A stretch of DNA of 64,000 nt, from the IMG/VR virus record IMGVR_UViG_3300020048_000009, positions 64,001 through 128,000 of that record; one strand, given 5' to 3'. This document shows, one piece after another, positions 19,394-51,198 of the stretch (its first letter is position 1; the number at the start of each line of letters is the position of its first letter). The notes beneath the pieces were generated by a model that made no database searches, was not told the DNA's origin, and saw only the letters and a program-made list of their open reading frames with translations. The position numbers and the translations under genes were made by a program. The DNA is from a virus. Taxonomy: Duplodnaviria; Caudoviricetes.

Positions 19394-19470
19394 GAGCTCG
19401 TAGAGGAAATGGTTAACTCATGTGGTTTTCATCCACAAGATTGCCGGTTCGAATCCGGTCGGGCTTACCA
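19394..19470 (+). tRNA. trnE: tRNA-Glu(TTC)
   Basis: Cloverleaf; TGTGG-TTTTCAT-CCACA; CCA. Confidence 0.92.
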
Positions 19471-19561
19471 TATAAGCATGACGACTAGACTAGCAATGCT
19501 TTCAGCTTATAGCTAAACTAGTGACACGGCGGAGAGCACGTCGGACAATTTTATAATTTAT

Positions 19562-19647
19562 GGATAGGTGCTCCTGAATGGTAAGGGGACGGTCTTGAAA
19601 ACCGTAGGCTAACCCCACTGCACGTTCGATTCGTGTCCTATCCTCCA
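19562..19647 (+). tRNA. trnS: tRNA-Ser(TGA)
   Basis: ACGGT-CTTGAAA-ACCGT; long V-arm; CCA. Confidence 0.9.
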
Positions 19648-19694
19648 ATTTGTGGCGCGTCACGGTGTGTGTATAAGTCGCTTCGATTTATTAT

Positions 19695-19772
19695 GGGGCC
19701 ATAACTCAGTCCGGCTAGAGTGTCTCCCTTGCACGGAGAAAGTCGGGGGTTCAAATCCCTCTGGCTCCACCA
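19695..19772 (+). tRNA. trnA: tRNA-Ala(TGC)
   Basis: G3:U70; TCTCC-CTTGCAC-GGAGA; CCA. Confidence 0.95.
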
Positions 19773-19776
19773 ATTT

Positions 19777-19868
19777 GGCTGCATTCCGGATGCAGTCGGA
19801 TCAATTCACCTGATGTACTAGAGCGAGTCAGGAATTATGAAACAGTAAAATTCTGTATCGGTCTGCCA
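19777..19868 (+). ncRNA. Structured RNA ending in CCA, not a cloverleaf
   Basis: GCTGCA/TGCAGT hairpin; CGGATC/GGTCTG; CCTGA/TCAGG; ACAG/CTGT. Confidence 0.4.
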
Positions 19869-19876
19869 ATTTATGT

Positions 19877-19952
19877 AGAACGTTCGCGTAGTGGTTAGCG
19901 CACTAGACTGTCGATCTGGATTTCACGGGTTCGATTCCCGTACGTTCTGCCA
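19877..19952 (+). tRNA. trnD: tRNA-Asp(GTC)
   Basis: CTAGA-CTGTCGA-TCTGG; G73; CCA. Confidence 0.92.
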
Positions 19953-19962
19953 TTTTAATTTA

Positions 19963-20039
19963 CGGAGTGTGGAGGCAATTGGCTGCCCACGTGCCTTGGA
20001 CGCATGGTTATGTCGGATCGTTCCCGACCACTCCGACCA
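19963..20039 (+). tRNA. trnP: tRNA-Pro(TGG)
   Basis: CGGAGTG/CACTCCG; CTTGGAC loop; atypical T-loop ATCGTTC. Confidence 0.9.
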
Positions 20040-20052
20040 ATTTTTCTAGAAA

Positions 20053-20127
20053 GCCAACTTGACTGAATGGTTAAGTACCTCATTTGTAATGAGACCCATA
20101 ACGGTTCGATCCCGTTAGTTGGCTCCA
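20053..20127 (+). tRNA. trnT: tRNA-Thr(TGT)
   Basis: GCCAACT/AGTTGGC; TTTGTAA loop; CCA. Confidence 0.9.
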
Positions 20128-20220
20128 TATTTTATATACGAAAGTAATATATTCTAAAACCGGTACTTTCTTTTCAAATATGTATACCGGCTTTAATAAA
20201 TAAAATTAAAGGAATATATT

Positions 20221-20946
20221 ATGAATACAGTAATTTGTCCAATATGTGGAAAAGAATACAAACAATTAATAGCACAACATATTTTTAAACACGGTTTGAC
20301 TATTGAAGAATTTAAACTTAAATTTCCAGATTTTTATTTAGGTAGTCCGGGTATTGAAAGTACTAGAAAAGAAAAAATGGTACTTCAATATGAAAAAGAT
20401 AATATACGATGTAAACATTGTAATAAATTAATAACATCACCAAATAGAAAACATAGAATCTTTTGTAGTACTTTATGTAAAGCTACTTATTATTCTTTTA
20501 ACAAAGAGCTTGTTCAAACAAAAGGAAAACATTTTAAAAAAATCTGTTGTGCATGTAATAAAGAATATAAAGCCTTTAGAGATAATTCTAAATTTTGTTC
20601 TAATAAATGTCAACAAGAATATATTAATGTTCAAAAAATTAAAGAATGGAAAGACGCCACAGAACAGGGAAAACCTTTTCCCTATAGAAAATGGATAAGA
20701 CATTATCTTTTTAAAAAATATGATAACAAATGCTGTAAATGTGGGTGGAGTAAGATTAATCCTTTTACAGGAAATGTTCCTTTAGAACTTGAACATATTG
20801 ATGGTAATTCAAATAACAATAAAGAAGAAAATTTAGAATTGTTATGTCCCTGTTGTCATGCCTTAACTTCCACATATAAGGGTGCAAATAGAGGTAATGG
20901 AAGATTCTCTAGAAGACAAAGATACCAAGAAGGTAAATCTTATTAA
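20221..20946 (+). mobile_element. HNH homing endonuclease with Zn-finger N-terminus
   Basis: CCKCG...LELEHIDGNSNNNKEENLELLCPCCH; ATAAATA upstream. Confidence 0.88.
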
Positions 20947-20957
20947 TAAAATTTAAT

Positions 20958-21031
20958 GCGTCTGTAGCTCAATGGTCGAGCCCGTCCTTGCCAAGGATGT
21001 TATACGAGTTCAATTCTCGTCAGATGCTCCA
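20958..21031 (+). tRNA. trnG: tRNA-Gly(GCC)
   Basis: TTGCCAA loop; U73; CCA. Confidence 0.92.
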
Positions 21032-21040
21032 ATTTAAAAT

Positions 21041-21115
21041 GTTTAATATGAGCTAATGGTAAGCTTCCAGGTTTAAAGACCCAGAGTATATAGGTTCAAC
21101 TCCTATTATTAGATA
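21041..21115 (+). pseudogene. Degenerate tRNA, anticodon unresolved (TAA or TTA register)
   Basis: D-arm and ATAGG-TTCAACT-CCTAT T-arm intact; anticodon stem mismatched; no CCA. Confidence 0.55.
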
Positions 21116-21120
21116 TTTAT

Positions 21121-21195
21121 GCGTTTGTAACTCAATTGGCAGAGTGCTGGGCTTCCAACCCGGATATACGGGATCATACCCCGTCAGATGCTCCA
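21121..21195 (+). tRNA. trnG: tRNA-Gly(TCC)
   Basis: CTGGG-CTTCCAA-CCCGG; T-loop ATCATAC. Confidence 0.88.
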
Positions 21196-21201
21196 TTTAA
21201 A

Positions 21202-21275
21202 GCGATGTTAGCAAAATGGTTATGCGGCGGTCTGCAAAACCGCTTACATGTGTTCAATTCACATACATTGCTCCA
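21202..21275 (+). tRNA. trnC: tRNA-Cys(GCA)
   Basis: GCGGT-CTGCAAA-ACCGC; U73. Confidence 0.92.
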
Positions 21276-21285
21276 TTTTATTTAT

Positions 21286-21361
21286 GCTCTCTTATTTCAG
21301 TGGCTAGAATGCTTCCTTTACACGGAAGAGGTCAGGAGTTCGAATCTCTTAGGGAGTACCA
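21286..21361 (+). tRNA. trnV: tRNA-Val(TAC)
   Basis: CTTCC-TTTACAC-GGAAG; CCA. Confidence 0.92.
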
Positions 21362-21367
21362 TTTTTT

Positions 21368-21444
21368 CGAAGTATAACTCAGTTGGTTAGAGTACCTGTC
21401 TGATACACAGAATGTCGGTGGTTCGAATCCATCTACTTCGACCA
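21368..21444 (+). tRNA. trnI: tRNA-Ile(GAT)
   Basis: CTGATAC loop; CGAAGTA/TACTTCG; CCA. Confidence 0.92.
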
Positions 21445-21451
21445 TTTTATT

Positions 21452-21535
21452 GGGACTGTGGCGTAATGGCAGACGCGCTGGTTTTAGACACCAGTGGAGA
21501 AATCCGTGAAGGTTCAAGTCCTTTCAGTCCCACCA
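21452..21535 (+). tRNA. trnL: tRNA-Leu(TAG)
   Basis: CTGGT-TTTAGAC-ACCAG; V-arm GGA-GAAA-TCC; A73. Confidence 0.92.
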
Positions 21536-21564
21536 GTTTTGTTTCATTAAAGCATATAATATCA

Positions 21565-21636
21565 GTGTATAAAAGCCAATGAATATACTACTATATTAAT
21601 ATCAATTACGCAATTGATACTGTTCTTTGAATAACA
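21565..21636 (+). promoter_or_regulatory. Promoter + hairpin + boxA-like site
   Basis: GTGTAT-N18-TACTAT; ATCAATT-acgc-AATTGAT; TGTTCTTTGAATAAC at 21621. Confidence 0.65.
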
Positions 21637-21646
21637 ATTTTTAAAT

Positions 21647-21735
21647 CGCAGGGTGGCGTAATTGGCAGCCGCAGCGGACTTAAAATCCGCTGGGTGGTAA
21701 CACCCGTGAGGGTTCGAGTCCCTCCCTTGCGACCA
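21647..21735 (+). tRNA. trnL: tRNA-Leu(TAA)
   Basis: GCGGA-CTTAAAA-TCCGC; long V-arm; CCA. Confidence 0.92.
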
Positions 21736-21994
21736 TTGATCCTTAGTTAGAAGATTGTGTTCTGTCAGCCCATCAAGATAGACGTTTGAGATCATGCCTC
21801 TTCTGGAACAAGTATATAAACTTTAAGCCTTTGAGCGGACAGGTTTATATTAAGTGAAATCCTTGATGGTCGGCGGTGTATTCCAGTCTTTTGTTTTAGT
21901 ATGATATTAATGTTTTCGTTACCTGACCGTTGGACTAAGTGCACTTCGTAAGAAGGCTCCAATCAATCAGCTTCTCCATTAACCAGCAGCATAT

Positions 21995-22071
21995 AGGCGT
22001 GTAGCTCAGCTGGTTAGAGCGGGATCCTTATAAGGTCTAGGTCGCTGGTTCAACTCCAGCCACGCCTACCA
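21995..22071 (+). tRNA. trnI: tRNA-Ile(TAT)
   Basis: GGATC-CTTATAA-GGTCT; AGGCGTG/CACGCCT; A73. Confidence 0.85.
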
Positions 22072-22088
22072 TTTTTTAGAAAGTAATT

Positions 22089-22238
22089 ATGCTTTATTAT
22101 TGGACAAGAGTTTATAATACAGGTGCTGCCCATTATTGGGAAGTAGAAAGTGAAGAAGCTTTACTTATCGCTGCAAAAGAAAAGTATGGTGAATCACTTT
22201 TTGATTATGGAATGACAACTCAAAAGAAAACAAAGTAA
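22089..22238 (+). CDS. 49-aa hypothetical protein
   Basis: Hand-translated ORF between tRNAs. Confidence 0.45.
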   Translation: MLYYWTRVYNTGAAHYWEVESEEALLIAAKEKYGESLFDYGMTTQKKTK

Positions 22239-22250
22239 ACAATTTTTAAT

Positions 22251-22332
22251 GGGAATGTATCTCCCCCGCCTTCTAAGCGGACGTTAAAAGAGTAATTGGA
22301 GTATGCAGGTTCGATCCCTGTCTTTCCCGCCA
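22251..22332 (+). ncRNA. Rearranged tRNA-Arg(TCT)-like RNA lacking a positional D-arm
   Basis: GGGAATG/CTTTCCC-G-CCA; CCGC-CTTCTAA-GCGG; GCAGG-TTCGATC-CCTGT. Confidence 0.7.
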
Positions 22333-22417
22333 TTTTAGCTAAGAGTAGTAAATATTTAATTTACTTATATATTTAAGCTGCGCTTTTAATAAATAAAATT
22401 AAGGGTATAACTTAAAT

Positions 22418-22924
22418 ATGAAAAATAAATGTCATAAATGTAATGTAGATATTCCAAACAGGGTTAAAATAGATAACTGTTGGAAAACAATTAACCATAG
22501 AAAATTTTGTTTAATCTGTTCACCGTGGGGTAAACATAATACTAAAAGCGTGGATCCTTCTAAAAGAACGCTTTCAGAAAAAGAAAGACATTCCTGGAAA
22601 AATTTAACAGATAAACAAAAAACATGTCATAAAACATCACAACATAAGAGAGCCGTTAAGCGTAAGGTTGAACTTATTAATATGCGAGGTGGGAAGTGTG
22701 AAAGATGTGGTTATGATAAATGTATTGATGTATTTCATTTTCATCATATAGATCCATCGTTAAAAACCATGAACATGGGATTAAATTCTCTATGGTGTAA
22801 ATCATGGGAAAAGATTTTACAGGAATTTGAAAATTGTAAAGTATATTGTTCTAATTGCCACATGGAAGTGCATTATGAATTAAAAAATCCTGATAATAAA
22901 CAATGTACTTTAATTTCAAAATAA
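22418..22924 (+). mobile_element. HNH homing endonuclease
   Basis: GGKCERCG...FHFHHIDP...CKVYCSNCHMEVH; ATAAATA upstream. Confidence 0.85.
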
Positions 22925-22936
22925 TATGATTAGCCA

Positions 22937-23007
22937 GTGTATAAAAAGAAGAGATTATCATATTATATATCTATCAAGTATGTACTTGAGCATGTTCTTT
23001 GACAATT
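22937..23007 (+). promoter_or_regulatory. Promoter + hairpin + boxA-like site
   Basis: GTGTAT-N18-TATTAT; TCAAGT-atgt-ACTTGA; TGTTCTTTGACAATT at 22993. Confidence 0.65.
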
Positions 23008-23029
23008 AATAGCAAATGATTTTTTTAAT

Positions 23030-23114
23030 GGAAGCGTGGCCGAACGGCTAGGCATCGGACTTTTAATCCGAGGGAGAAATCCTAACGCAGGTTCGACCCC
23101 TGTCGCTTCTACCA
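23030..23114 (+). tRNA. tRNA with Lys(TTT) anticodon on a class II long-V-arm body
   Basis: TCGGA-CTTTTAA-TCCGA; V-arm GGA-GAAA-TCC; 3-bp D-stem; A73. Confidence 0.85.
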
Positions 23115-23132
23115 TCTTTTTAGTTTTCAAAT

Positions 23133-23206
23133 TGTCCCATAGTGTAATGGCAGCACAGCACCCTTTGACGGTGTTTGTATTGGTTCAAGTCCAGTTGGGA
23201 CAACCA
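23133..23206 (+). tRNA. trnQ: tRNA-Gln(TTG)
   Basis: GCACC-CTTTGAC-GGTGT; T1:A72. Confidence 0.92.
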
Positions 23207-23208
23207 AT

Positions 23209-23282
23209 ATTCCCATGTTGTAAAGGATGCATGCGGCGCTACGAACGCTTCGGTTGGAGTTCGAATCTCTATGGGAATACCA
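23209..23282 (+). tRNA. trnR: tRNA-Arg(ACG)
   Basis: CTACGAA loop; ATTCCCA/TGGGAAT; CCA. Confidence 0.85.
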
Positions 23283-23287
23283 TTTTA

Positions 23288-23346
23288 AAGACGCAAACAG
23301 CAATTCAAATAAAAATTCACTGTTAATGAAAAAAAAAACGCGTCTT
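23288..23346 (+). ncRNA. Anticodon-stem-loop mimic (Asn GTT) in an AAGACGC/GCGTCTT stem
   Basis: TTCA-CTGTTAA-TGAA at 23316-23330. Confidence 0.5.
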
Positions 23347-23354
23347 GTTTTTAT

Positions 23355-23429
23355 AGTAGAGTAGGCAAGTGGTAATCCGCCTCCCTGTTAAGGAGGACAG
23401 CGCTGGTTCGATCCCAGCCTCTACTGCCA
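23355..23429 (+). tRNA. trnN: tRNA-Asn(GTT)
   Basis: CCTCC-CTGTTAA-GGAGG; G73. Confidence 0.92.
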
Positions 23430-23432
23430 CTT

Positions 23433-23555
23433 TGGGAACAGATGGTTAGCGCCATTTGGCATATTTATTCATGTAGTATGCCTAACCCATTTATATTTTT
23501 GATAAATAAAATAGAGGTTACGCTAAGAACCTCTTTAAAATAAAGGTAAAATAAT
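23433..23555 (+). ncRNA. Endonuclease-leader structured RNA, copy 2
   Basis: Loops TTAGCG (23446-23451) and CGCTAA (23521-23526). Confidence 0.7.
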
Positions 23556-24236
23556 ATGATTAATAAATTAGATGAATCATGGAAGCAAGTAAACGGTTTA
23601 TATAAATGTCCAATATGTAGTAAAGAGTATTCTAAAAAAGGAATTTGTTCGCATATCTTTAGATCACATACAAAAGACGGTAAATATAATTCTTTTAAAG
23701 ATAATAACAGATTATATACTTCATCGTGGAATAAAGGTTTAATAAAAGAAACAGATCTTAGAATCAAGAAATCTGGTGAGAAACTTAAAGAAAGTCTTAA
23801 CTCTGGTAAAGTAATACCACCACAAACAGGAAAACCTATTGCTCCTGAAATAAAAGCTAAAATATCCAATACGATGAAGATTGCTCATAAAGAAGGAAGA
23901 GCGTGGAATATTGGAAAGTCTAGATGGAATAACAAAGCTTCATATCCAGAAGAATTCTTTATGAAGGTTATTGAAAATGAATTTGAGGATAAGAATTATA
24001 TAAGAGAATTTAATGTTGGTATTTATTCTATAGATTTTGCATGGACCGATAAAAAGTTAGCTATAGAAATAGACGGACAACAGCATAAACGATTTGAAGA
24101 ATATAAACAGAGAGATCTTCGGAAAGATGAATGTTTATTAGAGAATGGATGGAAAGTTCTAAGAATTTTATGGATTGATATGTATAAGGATCCACACAAG
24201 TGGATTAAAATTGCTAAAGATTTTATACATAATTAA
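23556..24236 (+). mobile_element. Putative homing endonuclease, DUF559/Vsr-like nuclease with C2H2- and NUMOD-like N-terminus
   Basis: CPICSK..HIFRSH; YSIDFAWTDKKLAIEIDGQQH..RD..L..NGWKVLRI. Confidence 0.82.
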
Positions 24237-24249
24237 GAATTTTATTAAT

Positions 24250-24325
24250 GCGATTGTAGCTCAGTAGGCAGAGCGTCGGACTCTTAATCCGAAGCGCGTG
24301 GGATCATAGCCCTCCAGTCGTACCA
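24250..24325 (+). tRNA. trnK: tRNA-Lys(CTT)
   Basis: TCGGA-CTCTTAA-TCCGA; T-loop ATCATAG. Confidence 0.88.
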
Positions 24326-24363
24326 TTTTGATGTACAAGATCAGATAGACATGAGAATTTTAT

Positions 24364-24437
24364 TGCGCGGTTGAGGAGAGGCCCCTCTGCAGGCTCATAA
24401 CCTGCCTACGCCGGTTCGAATCCGGCCTGCGCAACCA
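24364..24437 (+). tRNA. trnM: tRNA-Met(CAT)
   Basis: GCAGG-CTCATAA-CCTGC; CCA; initiator vs elongator unresolved. Confidence 0.88.
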
Positions 24438-24446
24438 ATTTAACAA

Positions 24447-24597
24447 CACGGCGTGAGGAAAGAACTTGTTCTATGATTCTTAATTCGATTCTAGTAAGAT
24501 AGTACTGTCTGAACGAGGATGTTATTAAGCGGAGAACAGAAATCCTACCGGAAACATGTCCGGAAATCGCAGGTATCGAATCCTGTCGCCGTAACCA
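24447..24597 (+). ncRNA. 151-nt initiator-tRNA-like RNA with 83-nt D-loop insertion
   Basis: C1:A72 mismatch; AGGA/TCCT D-stem; CCGGA-AACATG-TCCGG; T-arm; A-CCA. Confidence 0.65.
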
Positions 24598-24603
24598 ATT
24601 TTA

Positions 24604-24679
24604 GGAGTTTTGTTGTAGATGGTTCGCAAAACGGTCTGAAAAACCGAAGGATAGGGTTCGATCCCCTGAAACTCCACCA
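24604..24679 (+). tRNA. trnF: tRNA-Phe(GAA)
   Basis: CTGAAAA loop; GGAGTTT/AAACTCC. Confidence 0.9.
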
Positions 24680-24690
24680 TTTTATTTTCT

Positions 24691-24778
24691 GGTAGTTTAT
24701 TCCGTAGGTAGTCTCGGGGCGCACTGTAAATGCGCTGGCTAATACCCTAAGGTAGTGCAACTCTATCAACTACCACCA
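24691..24778 (+). tRNA. trnY: tRNA-Tyr(GTA)
   Basis: GCGCA-CTGTAAA-TGCGC; long V-arm; T-loop TGCAACT. Confidence 0.88.
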
Positions 24779-24783
24779 GCTTT

Positions 24784-24920
24784 AAATAAGGACAGATGGT
24801 TAGCGCCATTTGGATGTTTTTCATATGACACGCCTAACTTATTTAATTATTTTTTCATATTTTTTGATAAATAAAATAGAGGTTACGCTAAGAACCTCTT
24901 AAAAATAAAGGTAAAATAAT
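24784..24920 (+). ncRNA. Endonuclease-leader structured RNA, copy 3
   Basis: AAATAAG/CTTATTT closing stem; loops TTAGCG and CGCTAA (24886-24891). Confidence 0.7.
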
Positions 24921-25457
24921 ATGAGTAAAAAATTAATTGATCGCATCGGTGCTGATAAAATCATTGAAGTCTGCAAATCTGCAAAAACATTTAAAGAAGC
25001 ATGTGAAAAACTTAACTGTGGTTATAGATATTTAATGACAGCAGCCGTTGAATTAAATGTTTTCGATGAGTTAAAGTCTAGATCTAAAGAATTTGCACAT
25101 AAATTTAAAAAGGCTGATGGTTCAAGATTATGGTTGATTAAAACTAATACGGGACAAGGCTTTACATCATACAGAACTGATACTAAAATTTGGTGTGAAG
25201 AACTTTTTAAAGGAAATCATACATCAACCGCTGTTAGAATTAAAACACATTTAATTAATGCTGGGTATAAAGAAGATCATTGTGAATGCTGTGGTATTAA
25301 TGAATGGAACAATAAGCCAATAAGTTTACAATTACATCATATAGATGGAAATTCTAGAAACAATCAGTTAGATAATTTAAAAATTCTTTGTCCTAATTGT
25401 CACGTTCAAACAGATAATTATGGTTCTAAGAATGCTCGAAATAAAGAGCGCGAGTAA
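24921..25457 (+). mobile_element. HNH homing endonuclease
   Basis: CECCG...LQLHHIDGNSRNNQLDNLKILCPNCH. Confidence 0.88.
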
Positions 25458-25473
25458 AGATTCCACCATTTTA

Positions 25474-25545
25474 GGGCAGCATGAAGGTACAAGCTCTACC
25501 TATAACTTAGGTACCTGGTGAGTTCAATTCTCATCCTGTCCACCA
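25474..25545 (+). pseudogene. Degenerate tRNA-like RNA with CCA
   Basis: GGGCAG/CTGTCC; GTGAG-TTCAATT-CTCAT; non-canonical D and anticodon regions. Confidence 0.55.
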
Positions 25546-25551
25546 TTTTAT

Positions 25552-25628
25552 GTAGCAGTAATTCAAGAGATAGAAATGCTGGGGTAATTCCTGGCGTGTT
25601 GTTGGTAAAAATCCAGCCTGCTACACCA
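25552..25628 (+). pseudogene. Degenerate tRNA-like RNA with CCA
   Basis: Perfect GTAGCAG/CTGCTAC-A-CCA; T-loop TAAAAAT; no valid anticodon loop. Confidence 0.55.
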
Positions 25629-25630
25629 CT

Positions 25631-26064
25631 TTCAGTTGTAATTCAAGCCATGTCCGATAGGGTACTTCTATATGAGCGCGCCCTATTTGTAAAGAATGAG
25701 ATAGACGAGAGTCGGCCGTAAGAGAATCCTCTGCAGGGGTTCAAAGACTAAAGACTCAGGAGGAACGTGTTACGTGAAATCCTCATTGACAAAGATCCCT
25801 AATGAACGGGAATGATAGTAAGTTAGTAAGAGAGATATTTGTGATTATGCCTTTAGTGTAACGGTTAGCACGTGGGATAATTCCCTTAGATCGGTTCGAC
25901 TCCGCAGGAAAAAACAAATCACATACAGAACCTTGTGAAATCCTTATATGGTACCTATCCAACTGAGCCATTCCAAGAATCCCCAGAGACGGTGTAGTAG
26001 GGATATACGAAGCAACACATTCATAGGCCTATCGGTGTTGTTGTAGATAGGACAAGACCGTTTC
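25631..26064 (+). ncRNA. Large structured RNA (about 430 nt) with embedded tRNA-like domain and 3' pseudoknots
   Basis: TTCAGTTG/CAACTGAG; GATAGGGTAC/GTACCTATC; GAGACGG/CCGTTTC; CCTATC/GATAGG; GCAACAC/GTGTTGT. Confidence 0.65.
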
Positions 26065-26069
26065 ATTTT

Positions 26070-26206
26070 TATACTGAGTAATGTAGAGAATTGGCAAATC
26101 AGCGGGCCAGTAGGCAAGTCTTAGAGATGCTGAAATCCGGCGGAATAACATTAGCTGGTAAGAGGTTATTCATTTATGGGTTCGAGTCCCATCATTATTC
26201 AGTGTA
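26070..26206 (+). ncRNA. tRNA-like RNA on a 14-bp closing stem with expanded anticodon region, no CCA
   Basis: CTGAGTAATG/CATTATTCAG; AATTGG D-loop-like; ATGGG-TTCGAGT-CCCAT. Confidence 0.55.
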
Positions 26207-26237
26207 TTTCTTTTTAAATTTAGTTATAATATAATTT

Positions 26238-26546
26238 ATGAAAACCAACAAATTTGTTTTTGAAATCAGTGTTGAAGGCCCAGGTTATAATGAAGAAAAT
26301 GTAGAAGAACTTTATGGTGAAGGTGCCATGTATAATCCAGATTTTTCAGAACACTCTGTAGTCATGGATGAGGTCTATGAAATCTTTAAGGATGCATTAA
26401 TGCAGCGAATGGAATTTAAAATGAATGCATTAATTAAACCTGTTCCAAATGAAGCAGCACAAAAAGCTTATCTAACTCATGTTGATGCAGCAATTGAGCT
26501 TTATAGAAAAGTTCAAGGAAGTTTAAAATTCGTTAGAAAAGAATAA
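26238..26546 (+). CDS. Hypothetical protein
   Basis: Behind GTGTAT-N17-TATAAT promoter at 26202. Confidence 0.65.
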   Translation: MKTNKFVFEISVEGPGYNEENVEELYGEGAMYNPDFSEHSVVMDEVYEIFKDALMQRMEFKMNALIKPVPNEAAQKAYLTHVDAAIELYRKVQGSLKFVRKE

Positions 26547-26552
26547 TTTATG

Positions 26553-26684
26553 GGGGTTGTTGGCTGAATAGGCATAAGCAGGGCACAAGAGGCCTGACAA
26601 AGCATAAAGGCATGTAGAAAACCGGCCGGGAATATTCTATATGTACTGTGCAGCGTGGAGGTTCGATTCCTTCCAGCCCCACCA
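26553..26684 (+). ncRNA. 132-nt tRNA-like RNA with giant variable arm
   Basis: GGGGTTG/CAGCCCC-A-CCA; class II D-arm; CATGTAGAA/TTCTATATG helix; GGAGG-TTCGATT-CCTTC. Confidence 0.65.
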
Positions 26685-26690
26685 ATTTAT

Positions 26691-26765
26691 ATAGCAGTAG
26701 TTCAATTGGCAGAATGGCGATCTCCAAAAGCGATGAAGTGGGTTCGATTCCTGCACATCCTGCCA
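26691..26765 (+). pseudogene. Degenerate tRNA-Trp(CCA)
   Basis: CTCCAAA loop, D and T arms present; acceptor strands ATAGCAG/ACATCCT do not pair. Confidence 0.6.
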
Positions 26766-26770
26766 TTTAT

Positions 26771-26849
26771 GGTAGTATTAGCTTAGTCTGGCCTAAAGCT
26801 ACGGACCGTGACTCCGTGATCGTGGGTTCGAATCCCATATACTTCCCCA
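26771..26849 (+). tRNA. trnH: tRNA-His(GTG)
   Basis: G-1:C73; ACGGA-CCGTGAC-TCCGT (C33). Confidence 0.85.
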
Positions 26850-26855
26850 AAATTA

Positions 26856-26922
26856 ATTCATAATTCGATCCCACTATTTGATAAATAAAATAAATATCAA
26901 ATAGTGGGATCGAATTATGAAT
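26856..26922 (+). repeat. Perfect 28-bp inverted repeat enclosing a late promoter and burying the next ATG
   Basis: ATTCATAATTCGATCCCACTATTTGATA / TATCAAATAGTGGGATCGAATTATGAAT. Confidence 0.9.
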
Positions 26923-27858
26923 ACTTTATTAATAAGACATTGTGAAAATTGTGGAATAGAACATGATGGAACATATGGATCTGGAAGATTTTGTTCTAAA
27001 GAATGCGCTAGAAGTTTTTCTTCTAAATTAAATACAAACATACGAAATGAAAAAATTTCAAAAACATTAAAAAATAAACATATTAGAGAAACTATATGTA
27101 AAAAATGTGGAACTATTGTATATACAAAGGGTTCTAGTCCAAATGTATGTTGTGACAAATGTAGACAAAAAAGAAAAAGCAATACCCCCTATTGTAATAG
27201 ATGTGGTGCCGAACGTGGAAAATGTAAATATCCATCTTTATGTAAAAAAAAGTTAAAATTATTTGATGGATTAGAAAAATATTTTGGATTTGATAAAACA
27301 AGTTTTGGGTCGAAAAGATATTATGAAGAAATCTTTAGAATAAAAGCAATGATAGAAGAAGATTATTATGAAAATAATAACTCAACAGTTGAATTATGTA
27401 AAAAATATAATCATACAGCATGTGGTAGTTTTATAAGAATACTAAAAAGCATTGATATTGTATTAAGAAATTTAAAAGAATCTTCATTACTGGCATATAA
27501 AACTGGTAGATCTGTTATATCAATAGATAATAGTACTCAATATAAACATGGGTGGCATACTGCATGGGATAACACACAAATATTTTATAGATCTTCATAT
27601 GAACTTGATTATGCTGAAAAATTAGATGAGCAAAAAGTAAAATATGACGTCGAAGCTTTAAGAATATCTTATTTTGATACTCAAAAATGTATAGAAAGAA
27701 CGGCAATTCCTGATTTTTATCTTCCTGAAACTAATACTATAGTTGAAATAAAATCTTCATGGACATATAATGAACAGAATATGAATGATAAAATTAAAGC
27801 TTATAAGAAGCATGGTTATAATTTTAAACTAATTTTAGATCATAAGGAAGTTGTTTAA
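26917..27858 (+). mobile_element. Putative homing endonuclease, TnsA-like PD-(D/E)xK domain with Zn-finger N-terminus
   Basis: CENCG..GSGRFCSKEC; FYRSSYELDYA...PDFYLPETNTIVEIKS. Confidence 0.75.
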
Positions 27859-27927
27859 AAAATTTATTTTTTTGCGTATAATTATAGTATACAAATAAAT
27901 TGTAATACAAATAAGGAAAACAATATT

Positions 27928-28068
27928 ATGTTAAAGAGAGATAAGCTCGGTAGATTCGTTGCTGCTAAGAAAGCACCTAAGGCTAAGCCCTGTGCACCAT
28001 GTAAACCTTCCAAGAAGGATTCATGTAAACCTTGCGCACCTAAGAAAACAAAGAAATGTTGTAAGTAA
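27928..28068 (+). CDS. 46-aa Lys/Cys/Pro-rich peptide
   Basis: MLKRDKLGRFVAAKKAPKAKPCAPCKPSKKDSCKPCAPKKTKKCCK; AAGGA RBS. Confidence 0.6.
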   Translation: MLKRDKLGRFVAAKKAPKAKPCAPCKPSKKDSCKPCAPKKTKKCCK

Positions 28069-28331
28069 TTTTCAACGTTTAGATAAATAAAAATATCAAA
28101 CCTGCGGTGCCTCTATTCGGGTGGATTTATTCCTTCGTACTGAATATGCATAATTCCGCGGGTATTTTATTTCAGGTGTACTTTTTAAATAAATCCGTGT
28201 ATTATATAATCATAACAAGTTAAATGGAGATGAGACAATGGATATTCCTTTTGCAGAATTAATGATTAAAGCTGGAGAATTGAACAAAGATACTTTCGTA
28301 ATCGATGTTGATACTCTTAGGAGATGGTTAG

Positions 28332-28547
28332 ATGAACAAAATCAAAAAGAATCAAACACAATGTAATTGTGAATCCCAATGTAATTGGGAAGTTCAAGGA
28401 ATGTCTCCTTCTCCCATACAGAATAAAACAATTGTTTTTAGAATGTCATGTGATGGTAAATACTTTACGACAACTACAAATGAAGTATCAACCCTCACCA
28501 TCTGCCCTCACTGTAATCAACCCATAACTCACCTAAACAAGGTTTAA
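28332..28547 (+). CDS. Zn-ribbon hypothetical protein
   Basis: CPHC near C-terminus. Confidence 0.55.
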   Translation: MNKIKKNQTQCNCESQCNWEVQGMSPSPIQNKTIVFRMSCDGKYFTTTTNEVSTLTICPHCNQPITHLNKV

Positions 28548-28551
28548 CATT

Positions 28552-28983
28552 ATGCGTACACAAATAGAAGGTATAAAATACGAGATGCCTGATGGCTATT
28601 ATCGCGTGACTAATAAGCTCGATATGGCCAGACGTGATGATTTAGTTTGGGGATCTTGTGAAGACCTATGGTCTAAACCTACAGGAAGACTTGATCTTGT
28701 TGGTAATTATTATGCGGTTATCCGTAAAGGTGTGAAACCTCCAAAAGTAATTAAAGAGAATTCTAAACCACCAGCTTATATAAAAGTTACTTCAGTTGAT
28801 GATATCAAAAAATATAATCTTAAAGAAGGTTCTAAGATTATTATAAACGATTTGAAATATACAATCGTTAAAATCCATTCAGCTGGTAATTATGGTTGGG
28901 GATTGTTAAGCCAACAATTTGCTATTTGTCTTATCACATCAAAACTTGAGCTTTTAATAAGCGCTTATACTCTTGGTATATAA
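28552..28983 (+). CDS. Hypothetical protein
   Basis: Co-oriented ORF. Confidence 0.65.
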   Translation: MRTQIEGIKYEMPDGYYRVTNKLDMARRDDLVWGSCEDLWSKPTGRLDLVGNYYAVIRKGVKPPKVIKENSKPPAYIKVTSVDDIKKYNLKEGSKIIINDLKYTIVKIHSAGNYGWGLLSQQFAICLITSKLELLISAYTLGI

Positions 28984-28989
28984 TTTAAT

Positions 28990-29081
28990 GGAAGTGTGGC
29001 CGAGCCTGGTTTATGGCGGCTGATTACTAATCAGCAGGGGCCTTAAAACCCCCGTAGGTTCAAATCCTATCGCTTCCTCCA
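28990..29081 (+). tRNA. trnS: tRNA-Ser(ACT)
   Basis: GCTGA-TTACTAA-TCAGC; V-arm GGGG/CCCC; U73; followed by terminator. Confidence 0.85.
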
Positions 29082-31981: not shown

Positions 31982-32163
31982 AATATTAAAGCTAAACCCT
32001 TATTATTAAAGGATTTATATATCTAAGAAAAGCCTATCCCATTGTATCTCCGTGAGATACTTAACCTATATTAAAAACACCAGTAAGAACTAATAAGTTC
32101 AGTGTATATTATAATAAGTATAAAGTATAATATTAACATCTTGAAACATTAAAGGATTATAGT

Positions 32164-32412
32164 ATGATGCTTGCATGTATAACATGGTTCGGTTTAGGTT
32201 TATGTGGTGCTCTCGTTTATCTATTAACATCTATTCACTGTATGTATATGGGTGAATCTATTACCATGGGTGATTTTCTACTTATGGCTGTTATAATTAT
32301 TATGGGACCTCCTGCTTTTATAATTATAGGCTTTCTATGCATTCTCGCTGCTATACCTAATAATGAAAAGTTAAATAGATTTCTAGATAAAACAGTAATC
32401 AAAGGAAAATAA
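32164..32412 (+). CDS. Small membrane protein
   Basis: Two hydrophobic helices. Confidence 0.6.
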   Translation: MMLACITWFGLGLCGALVYLLTSIHCMYMGESITMGDFLLMAVIIIMGPPAFIIIGFLCILAAIPNNEKLNRFLDKTVIKGK

Positions 32413-32422
32413 AAGGATTCAT

Positions 32423-32665
32423 ATGATAACTTACTTCACCATATTACTCCTATTCGCGCCAGGTATCATCCTCGCCATAGTCTATACGTTTAGCTGCATT
32501 CGTAAGAAGAAGCTTACATGGGGAGATCTGGCTATTATCATACTCAGTGCAGTCTTCGGTGTATATAGTACCATATTCGCAGGTGTAATCTATATGGGTA
32601 ATCATCCTAAACGAATTAAAGAATTATGGAATCGTCCAATATGGACTAATAGACGAATCATTTAA
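32423..32665 (+). CDS. Small membrane protein
   Basis: Two hydrophobic helices. Confidence 0.6.
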   Translation: MITYFTILLLFAPGIILAIVYTFSCIRKKKLTWGDLAIIILSAVFGVYSTIFAGVIYMGNHPKRIKELWNRPIWTNRRII

Positions 32666-50292: not shown

Positions 50293-51198
50293 ATGGGTTA
50301 CGCACATATTGAAAATTTATATAAGAATACATTGATTCTTCAGTTTAAGAAATGTTATGAGATGGAAAAGACTCATGGAACATCTGCACATATCAAGAGA
50401 AATAAAGACGGAACTATTACTTTTTCTTCAGGTGGAGCATCACATAATGTTTTCGTAAGTCTTTTTAATGAAGAGGAACTTAAAGCAAAGTTTATTGAAC
50501 ATTTCGGTGGTGTTAGTACTGTTACAATATATGGTGAAGCTTATGGTGGTAAGGAACAAGGAATGCGCCTTACTTATGGTGATAAGTTATGCTTTATTGT
50601 TTTTGATATTTCTGTTACCAATGATGACAAAGAACTTTGGCTAGATGTTCCAGTTGCTGCAGATTTTGCAGCTAAGATGGGATTAGAATTTACACCATAT
50701 TCAGAAATTGAAGCGACACTTGAGAATATCAATGCTGCTAGAGATAAACCCTCAGAGGTTGCCGTTCGTAGAGGATGTGGAAATAACGTAGATAAGTTTG
50801 GTTTTAATCCTCCTATTAGAGAGGGTACTGTACTTCGTCCTCTAATCCAAGTGGTTGATATGTATGGAAACCGTATTGTTTCTAAGCATAAAAGAGATGA
50901 ATTTTCTGAGAGAGCTCAAACCCCTAAAGTAGAAGATGCTGCTAAAATTAAGGTTTTAGAGGAAGCAACAGCTATCGCAGAGGAATGGGTTACTCCAATG
51001 CGTCTTGAGCATGTTCTTGATAAAATGGGGAACACTAGAGATTTGCAGAAAATTCCTCAGCTTATCGTGGCGATGATTGAAGATGTATACCGTGAAGGTA
51101 AGGGCGAAATTGTAGAAAATAAAGATGTAGAAAAAGCTATCGGCAAGAAGGCGGTTCATCTTTTCAAAACATTGGTGAAGACAGAAAATCTTAAGTAA
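50293..51198 (+). CDS. rnl2: RNA ligase, Rnl2 family
   Basis: EKTHGTS (motif I), YGEAYG, FIVFDI, REGTVLRP, SKHKRDEFSE. Confidence 0.82.
   Translation: MGYAHIENLYKNTLILQFKKCYEMEKTHGTSAHIKRNKDGTITFSSGGASHNVFVSLFNEEELKAKFIEHFGGVSTVTIYGEAYGGKEQGMRLTYGDKLCFIVFDISVTNDDKELWLDVPVAADFAAKMGLEFTPYSEIEATLENINAARDKPSEVAVRRGCGNNVDKFGFNPPIREGTVLRPLIQVVDMYGNRIVSKHKRDEFSERAQTPKVEDAAKIKVLEEATAIAEEWVTPMRLEHVLDKMGNTRDLQKIPQLIVAMIEDVYREGKGEIVENKDVEKAIGKKAVHLFKTLVKTENLK

Follow-up and report, generated by a model that had tools for sequence, protein, structure and literature searches.

The stretch of DNA analysed here (the window, 64,000 nucleotides) corresponds to bases 64001-128000 of a 211,678-base IMG/VR virus record, whose completeness is put at 84% by CheckV; the same terminase is also present on a 274-kb ENA contig. 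The plus strand of the window carries a tRNA array at 19394-29081, in which ARAGORN called 24 tRNA genes, 21 of them also passing the Rfam tRNA threshold, and genes for HNH, DUF559/PD-(D/E)xK and endonuclease-I-like proteins are interspersed in the array. In 23 of the 24 called tRNAs, the terminal CCA is encoded and a T-rich spacer comes next. Directly after a canonical tRNA-Met, where the original prediction had placed it, lies a tRNA-shaped RNA gene of 151 nt (the element), which begins 9 nt past the CCA of the tRNA-Met and ends as its neighbours do (...CGCCGTA-A-CCA, then ATTTTA), with a tRNA-Phe gene starting 6 nt beyond it. The features at the locus, together with the RNA-repair genes of the phage, are as follows.

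24364..24437, + strand: canonical tRNA-Met (CAT), directly upstream and a probable paralogue of the element, judging from similarity in the 3' part (ARAGORN; Rfam 47.8 bits)
24447..24597, + strand: the whole tRNA-shaped RNA gene, 151 nt, with a minimum free energy (MFE) cloverleaf and a long D-arm hairpin; single copy, with 147 of 151 positions identical in the related contig L009
24447..24453, + strand: 5' strand of the acceptor stem, CACGGCG, with C1 unpaired against A72 (sequence, RNAfold)
24456..24459, + strand: 5' strand of the D stem, AGGA, following T8 and G9 and pairing with TCCT; 11:24 is G:C (purine:pyrimidine)
24460..24542, + strand: 83-nt insert replacing the D loop, an A-rich 6x3 internal loop followed by a long imperfect hairpin with apical loop GUAC (RNAfold)
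24543..24546, + strand: 3' strand of the D stem, TCCT (sequence, RNAfold)
24548..24563, + strand: anticodon-like arm, CCGGA-AACATG-TCCGG, 5 bp with a 6-nt loop (sequence, RNAfold)
24569..24586, + strand: T arm, GCAGG-TATCGAAT-CCTGT, 5 bp (one G-U) with an 8-nt loop (sequence, RNAfold)
24587..24597, + strand: 3' strand of the acceptor stem, CGCCGTA (24587-24593), then discriminator A73 and the encoded CCA (24594-24597)
24604..24679, + strand: tRNA-Phe (GAA), directly downstream (ARAGORN and Rfam), with about 50% matches to its L009 counterpart
32078-32437 and 156445-157509 of the genome (G000:C1), and window 50293-51198: three RNA-repair genes

The RNA-repair set comprises a CCA-adding enzyme family protein, an RtcB ligase and an Rnl-type RNA ligase, and such a kit would also fit the upkeep of tRNA-like RNAs. 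A tRNA with the amber-reading anticodon CTA was called by ARAGORN at default settings outside the window (G000:C1 140246-140322), a hint that TAG may be suppressed or recoded in this phage.

Relatives of the region (L004, L014 and L009) were reached by protein-anchored walking. L009 measures 33.6 kb and is a contig of a separate study's lake-water metagenome; it was retrieved through an identical 118-aa protein. Public runs containing parts of 22000-27000 were also compared against the window; in the public run X5 (marked 'RNA?') coverage was limited to generic tRNA parts. The array holds other unusual units. At 22235-22328, a non-canonical tRNA-Arg(TCT)-like unit was called by ARAGORN only at -ps80, and its counterpart in L004 (12410-12486) is a canonical tRNA-Arg(TCT). 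The variable arm of a tRNA-Tyr(GTA)-like gene at 24691-24778 is long and its T arm weak; the gene, which has ACCA, was missed at default settings and likewise found only at -ps80, and a canonical tRNA-Tyr stands in its place in L009 (16735-16820). Just upstream of the tRNA-Met, at 24326-24363, a structured array RNA is represented by its truncated 5' half (CAAGATCAGATAGAC); the same RNA is complete at L009:15910-16025, where it terminates in GTGAAATCCTGGTCT, and about 420 bp have been lost from the window at this point relative to L009.

The original prediction described the element as initiator-tRNA-like, with an acceptor stem, D stem and T arm, A73-CCA, a D stem enclosing 83 nt, a CAT-containing anticodon loop, a 5-nt variable region and an 8-nt T loop, and all of these parts lie as listed above. 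The acceptor stem has six Watson-Crick pairs besides the unpaired C1:A72, and an unpairable 1:72 position was found in the element alone among 26 array units. In the tRNA body, each of the 20 stem pairs is either Watson-Crick or G-U, and the variable region is AAATC. The loops depart from the usual tRNA pattern. In the anticodon-like arm, CAT occupies the register of positions 34-36, A replaces U33, and one base on the 3' side of the loop is absent; the T loop is the canonical TTCGAAT with an additional A after T54; and G18-G19 are absent, the D loop having been replaced by the hairpin. Neither promoter-like nor terminator-like sites were found inside the element.

The MFE structure obtained with RNAfold without constraints is this cloverleaf with a single long imperfect hairpin (-42.7 kcal/mol), bearing out the earlier view that the insert folds as one hairpin, whose helices are UUGUUCU/AGAACAG, CUUAAU/AUUAAG, AUUCU/AGGAU and AGAUA/UGUCU. 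The fold energy corresponds to a z of -2.41, and 5 of 200 shuffled sequences folded equally well. Two stretches of the insert are complementary to loops of the tRNA body. The T-loop sequence AUCGAAU matches AUUCGAU in the insert over 7 nt (shuffle p ∼0.03), a match that is broken in L009 by a G>A change in the T loop, and AACAU of the 6-nt loop matches AUGUU over 5 nt (p ∼0.13), with three of the five AUGUU bases located within an internal loop of the hairpin. Opening the hairpin would cost about as much as either pairing gains, and a tertiary interaction of the T loop or the 6-nt loop with the insert is unproven.

Standard searches passed over the element. ARAGORN made no call on it, even at -ps80, and neither did the Rfam tRNA model (RF00005); such genes are silently missed by tRNA finders. 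When 24330-24900 was compared with Rfam at E<=10, no group I/II intron, self-cleaving ribozyme or YrlA match was obtained, nor did any other family give a meaningful match to the element. ARAGORN found no tmRNA here, and the Rfam permuted tmRNA appeared only elsewhere, at E 4.5. We rejected a tmRNA or a YrlA-type Y RNA, given that neither matched and that a TROVE/Ro60 gene was not found in the 84%-complete phage fragment, and we also rejected a repeat or mobile element, the insert occurring only once. Judged from its array-type ending and its copy at 147 of 151 positions in an independent assembly, the element is more than a chance arrangement of letters.

One reading put forward at the outset was that the gene is an unspliced, intron-containing tRNA; in this case, the 83 nt would be excised by an unknown endonuclease and the halves rejoined by RtcB (or Rnl) to give a tRNA of ∼70 nt. 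The two ligases encoded by the phage are compatible with such a pathway. We deleted the hairpin in silico with 130 combinations of end points, and ARAGORN at default settings called a tRNA in none of the 130 products. Relaxed settings returned only 'tRNA-???' with a 2-base anticodon (ca), because the loop has six bases. Since the 6-nt and 8-nt loops are identical in the independently assembled L009, these loop sizes are not assembly errors. Archaeal D-loop tRNA introns require a bulge-helix-bulge motif and the EndA enzyme. In contrast to those non-canonical introns, inspection of the RNAfold structure revealed no bulge-helix-bulge at the junctions of the insert, where the 4-bp D stem is flanked on one side by a 6x3 internal loop, and a gene for an EndA-type splicing endonuclease was not found in the phage. 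A self-splicing intron or ribozyme was likewise rejected, with no Rfam match at E<=10 and an insert of just 83 nt, too short for a group I intron. The lack of both a bulge-helix-bulge and a ribozyme makes an intron unlikely. Introns have been reported in phage tRNAs: in Lak megaphages, 'enigmatic' tRNA introns have been predicted (PMC6784885), and they resemble the present case in being extra sequence within a phage tRNA-like gene that is conserved between strains. However, the Lak introns were predicted in the anticodon loop rather than the D loop, and their excision gives a recognisable tRNA (PMC6784885), as deletion of the hairpin does not do here. Taken together, these results leave excision of the insert a very improbable explanation.

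Over its T arm and 3' end, the element agrees with the neighbouring tRNA-Met in 23 of 30 positions (z 5.1), and in this alignment the additional A of the T loop is an indel, while the differences in the stems are double changes that preserve pairing. Together with this similarity, CAT at positions 34-36, A73, a CxCGG acceptor with C1:A72, and a purine11:pyrimidine24 pair point to an ancestor of Met or initiator type. Bacterial initiator tRNAs are distinguished by C1:A72, A73, three G:C pairs at 29-31:39-41, and a 7-nt loop, CUCAUAA, with U33. The element shares with tRNA-fMet the unpaired C1:A72 with A73, CAU, C3:G70, G4:C69, G5:C68, G29:C41, G30:C40, and purine11:pyrimidine24. It differs in having A2:U71, an A:U pair at 31:39, which interrupts the three consecutive G:C pairs (CCGGA/TCCGG), and, in place of CUCAUAA, the 6-nt loop AACAUG with A33, which is the same in L009. 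Nor does it have canonical D and T loops, carrying instead the 83-nt hairpin and the 8-nt T loop, and tRNA models did not call it even with the hairpin removed. The initiator-like label is apt for C1:A72, A73, CAT, and the 11:24 pair, and fails for the three G:C pairs, U33 and the seven-membered loop.

These observations bear on whether the element could be a working Met tRNA, initiator or elongator, with a D arm that tolerates a large expansion, and thus the initiator otherwise missing from the array. C1:A72, A73, CAT at 34-36, G29:C41, G30:C40 and the purine11:pyrimidine24 pair speak in favour of this, as does the fact that no canonical initiator tRNA was called anywhere in the 212-kb record. 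The 6-nt anticodon loop with A33 and no position 38, the A:U pair at 31:39, the 8-nt T loop, the loss of G18-G19 and the failure of tRNA models after removal of the hairpin speak against it, and MetRS and formyltransferase genes were not found in the 84%-complete phage fragment. We regard a functional Met tRNA as improbable. There is a similarly slim chance that the element mimics an initiator tRNA that can be charged and cannot decode, acting as a decoy or sponge for host factors or delivering the hairpin arm to such a factor. MetRS would accept an RNA of this kind through CAU at 34-36 and A73, and formyltransferase might do so through C1:A72; its targets would be factors that attack or bind initiator tRNA, such as VapC-type or anticodon nucleases, IF2 or the P site.

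Comparison with L009 revealed how the element behaves as a unit. The copy at L009:16361-16511 lies in a block of homology that is limited to 24434-24605, with 5 differences, and on either side the sequence has been replaced: L009 has 417 other letters for 24352-24434 and 295 for 24605-25540. When the tRNA modules of the window array (19394-29081) were compared with those of L009:11201-19689, 12 were identical at 91-100% of positions and 12 at 79% or less, and a 102-aa protein encoded inside the array was 53% identical. This bimodal distribution implies gene-by-gene replacement within the array. The element belongs to the 91-100% class, while the adjoining tRNA-Phe is only ∼50% identical; with the flanks also replaced, this marks the element as a discrete, exchangeable, gene-sized module. 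Recent exchange, no less than selection, may explain why the two copies are so alike.

Four differences separate the two copies. Three fall in the 83-nt insert (24510 T>C, 24525 T>G and 24530 C>A), all on its 3' strand, and one in the 68-nt body, in the T loop (24578 G>A), where purine-57 is retained; no change was found in the stems of the tRNA body. Each of the insert substitutions abolishes a predicted pair and none is truly compensatory, the closest being 24530 C>A, which makes a new U:A pair so that one helix slides by a register. The cloverleaf is within 2 kcal/mol of the MFE of the L009 copy. With only two near-identical sequences, the hairpin has no support from covariation.

In the third relative, L014, the element is absent and is thus dispensable. 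Between tRNA-Lys(CTT) and tRNA-Phe, L014 has two other unusual CAT tRNA-like genes, and L009 has four units in the same slot, so that the CAT slot, with 2-4 other CAT tRNA-like genes in relatives, is a variable cluster of Met-type genes; the L004 contig stops short of it. Further homologues were not recovered: INPHARED blastn with 24200-24900 gave a tRNA-Lys-like match alone, IMG/VR pattern scans yielded no homologue (one returned four copies of an unrelated coding junction), a JGI metagenome scan gave one chance match in a eukaryote-like coding sequence, and additional look-ups produced no phage with the element beyond the two already known. The original prediction had called for homologues with variable inserts and for structural conservation in relatives. 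One homologue was found, and its insert differs at just 3 of 83 nt; the frame is kept in L009 and the element is lacking from L014.

The slot and its surroundings contain several further RNAs. Directly upstream of the orthologue of the element, L009:16212-16353 is a 142-nt tRNA-like RNA with acceptor CGGUGAU/GUCACCG, T arm ACGG-UUUAAAU-CCGU, ACCA, and a large branched interior, which is absent from the window. L014 has a ∼120-nt tRNA-like unit at 1232-1351 with an 8-bp acceptor stem, a T arm and ACCA, followed at 1357-1397 by an acceptor-like minihelix of ∼40 nt with a GCCA end. Homology of the element to the two long units, L009:16212-16353 and L014:1232-1351, was rejected, there being no sequence similarity. 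Both L009 (16028-16106) and L014 (544-621) have a tRNA-like gene of CAT type that combines C1:A72 and the loop CUCAUAA with a D region that is irregular and a T stem of 4 bp; it was called by neither ARAGORN nor Rfam, and has no copy in the window. The 11-mer CATGTCCGGAA, which in the window (24554-24564) forms the loop and 3' strand of the anticodon-like arm, recurs at L014:694-704 in the T stem and acceptor 3' end of a Met-like tRNA (z 3.5), and its sharing could be chance or a trace of rearrangement. The element's GGAAAGAAC...CAGAAATCCT recalls the 'framed' array RNAs (GATAGAC...GTGAAATCCT), a resemblance only, since loop sizes differ.

The same comparisons raise the possibility that the element is a spare copy of tRNA-Met in decay that took an insertion into its D loop, suffered indels in its two remaining loops, and is without function even if perhaps still processed. 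Each of the three functional loops is defective, changes accumulate faster in the insert than in the body (3 of 83 versus 1 of 68 nt) and without compensation, L014 lacks the element, and homing endonucleases churn these arrays, which abound in other degenerate tRNA-like units. Decay would be less readily reconciled with a body that keeps all 20 stem pairs, with an undamaged CCA and undamaged spacers, with three length changes that are all confined to loops, with stem differences from tRNA-Met that preserve pairing, or with an intact, discrete module in two phages with different flanking genes. We therefore consider a decaying gene unlikely, while giving it more weight than the readings weighed above.

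An RNA of similar layout is encoded by T4. The rnaC gene, specifying species 1 RNA, occupies 139 nt (AF158101 70908-71046; L015:1909-2047) within the T4 tRNA cluster, and the role of this RNA is given as unknown (PMC3014915, PMC9697503, PMC12685909). Rfam has no family for it, and we found rnaC in 748 phage records, where it is mostly unannotated. Folding and alignment of the gene from 6 T4-like phages gave a four-way junction supported by 19 compensated (covarying) pairs. Besides an acceptor stem and a canonical T arm, it comprises a long hairpin in the D-arm position, with AGG/CCU as its closing stem, and a 10-bp arm whose loop has 6 nt. The apical loop of the hairpin and the loop of the 10-bp arm are joined by a 6-bp kiss, UUGACG/CGUCAA, which covaries to UUGAUG/CAUCAA in TG1, and in CF-SP2 the sequence of the hairpin is replaced while the frame is conserved. 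Because its loop has 6 nt, the 'anticodon' arm of rnaC does not decode.

Likenesses between the two RNAs are plain: both lie inside phage tRNA clusters beside tRNAs, and both combine a tRNA-like acceptor stem and T arm with a long hairpin on a short AGG/CCU-type stem at the D-arm position and with a 6-nt loop on the 'anticodon' arm. In contrast, homology was not detectable. A covariance model of rnaC built from 6 diverse T4-like phages found no match at E<=10 in 24447-24597, whether or not the filters were used, and scored the neighbouring ordinary tRNAs at 12-16 bits; local alignment of the element with rnaC gave a z of 0.5. The element also lacks a kiss of the rnaC type, its apical loop GUAC not being complementary to AACAUG. 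The arm with the 6-nt loop is 10 bp long in rnaC and 5 bp long, with CAT, in the element; the T loop has the canonical 7 nt in rnaC and 8 nt in the element; and ACCA is encoded in the element, whereas rnaC encodes no CCA. By these model comparisons, the element is best classed as a variant of the T4 species-1 design and not as a member of the rnaC family.

Among the uses first proposed, the best fit is a tRNA scaffold displaying a cargo RNA, since the parts read in processing are intact and unchanged in L009, and the three functional loops are remodelled. This arrangement has an engineered parallel in the 'tRNA scaffold' for recombinant RNA of Ponchon and Dardel (PMC3753655), in which a tRNA frame recognised by processing enzymes likewise carries and stabilises a foreign hairpin. 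There the insert replaces the anticodon stem-loop and both the D and T arms are kept, whereas in the element, which is natural, the insert replaces the D loop.

We give about an even chance to the element being a stable, non-decoding RNA that is derived from a Met or initiator tRNA, is matured like a tRNA, and bears the hairpin as a payload; T4 rnaC demonstrates that phages do make such RNAs. Its ancestor would have been a tRNA gene of methionine/initiator type that occupied the CAT slot of the array, and the element would have retained the features read during maturation, which are a 7-position acceptor stacked on a 5-bp T arm, A73, the encoded CCA and the T-rich spacers. With these features intact, it is most likely transcribed as part of the array precursor and cut by RNase P, which would generate the 5' end at C24447, while the 3' end would be trimmed to the CCA at 24597 and could be repaired by the phage CCA-adding enzyme. 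The mature product would persist as a stable 151-nt RNA. It is most likely non-decoding, because all three loops have been rebuilt (no G18-G19; 6 nt without U33; an 8-nt T loop). We infer its transcription, processing, stability and non-decoding nature from these features. As in the T4 species 1 design class, the top half of the tRNA would then provide a handle for processing and stability, and the hairpin arm would be the payload.

Phage tRNA clusters are usually seen as supplements to codon usage or as a means of countering host defence. Since the 1970s, T4 species 1 RNA has shown that such clusters also encode tRNA-shaped RNAs that do not decode. The element would be a second, unrelated instance in which the top half of a tRNA is combined with an additional arm at the D position, in this case in a giant freshwater phage. 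An rnaC-like design with a separate derivation, from a Met or initiator tRNA, suggests that the design arose more than once. The element would also offer a simple system in which the contribution of the tRNA frame (processing, stability, charging) can be set against the binding target of the arm.
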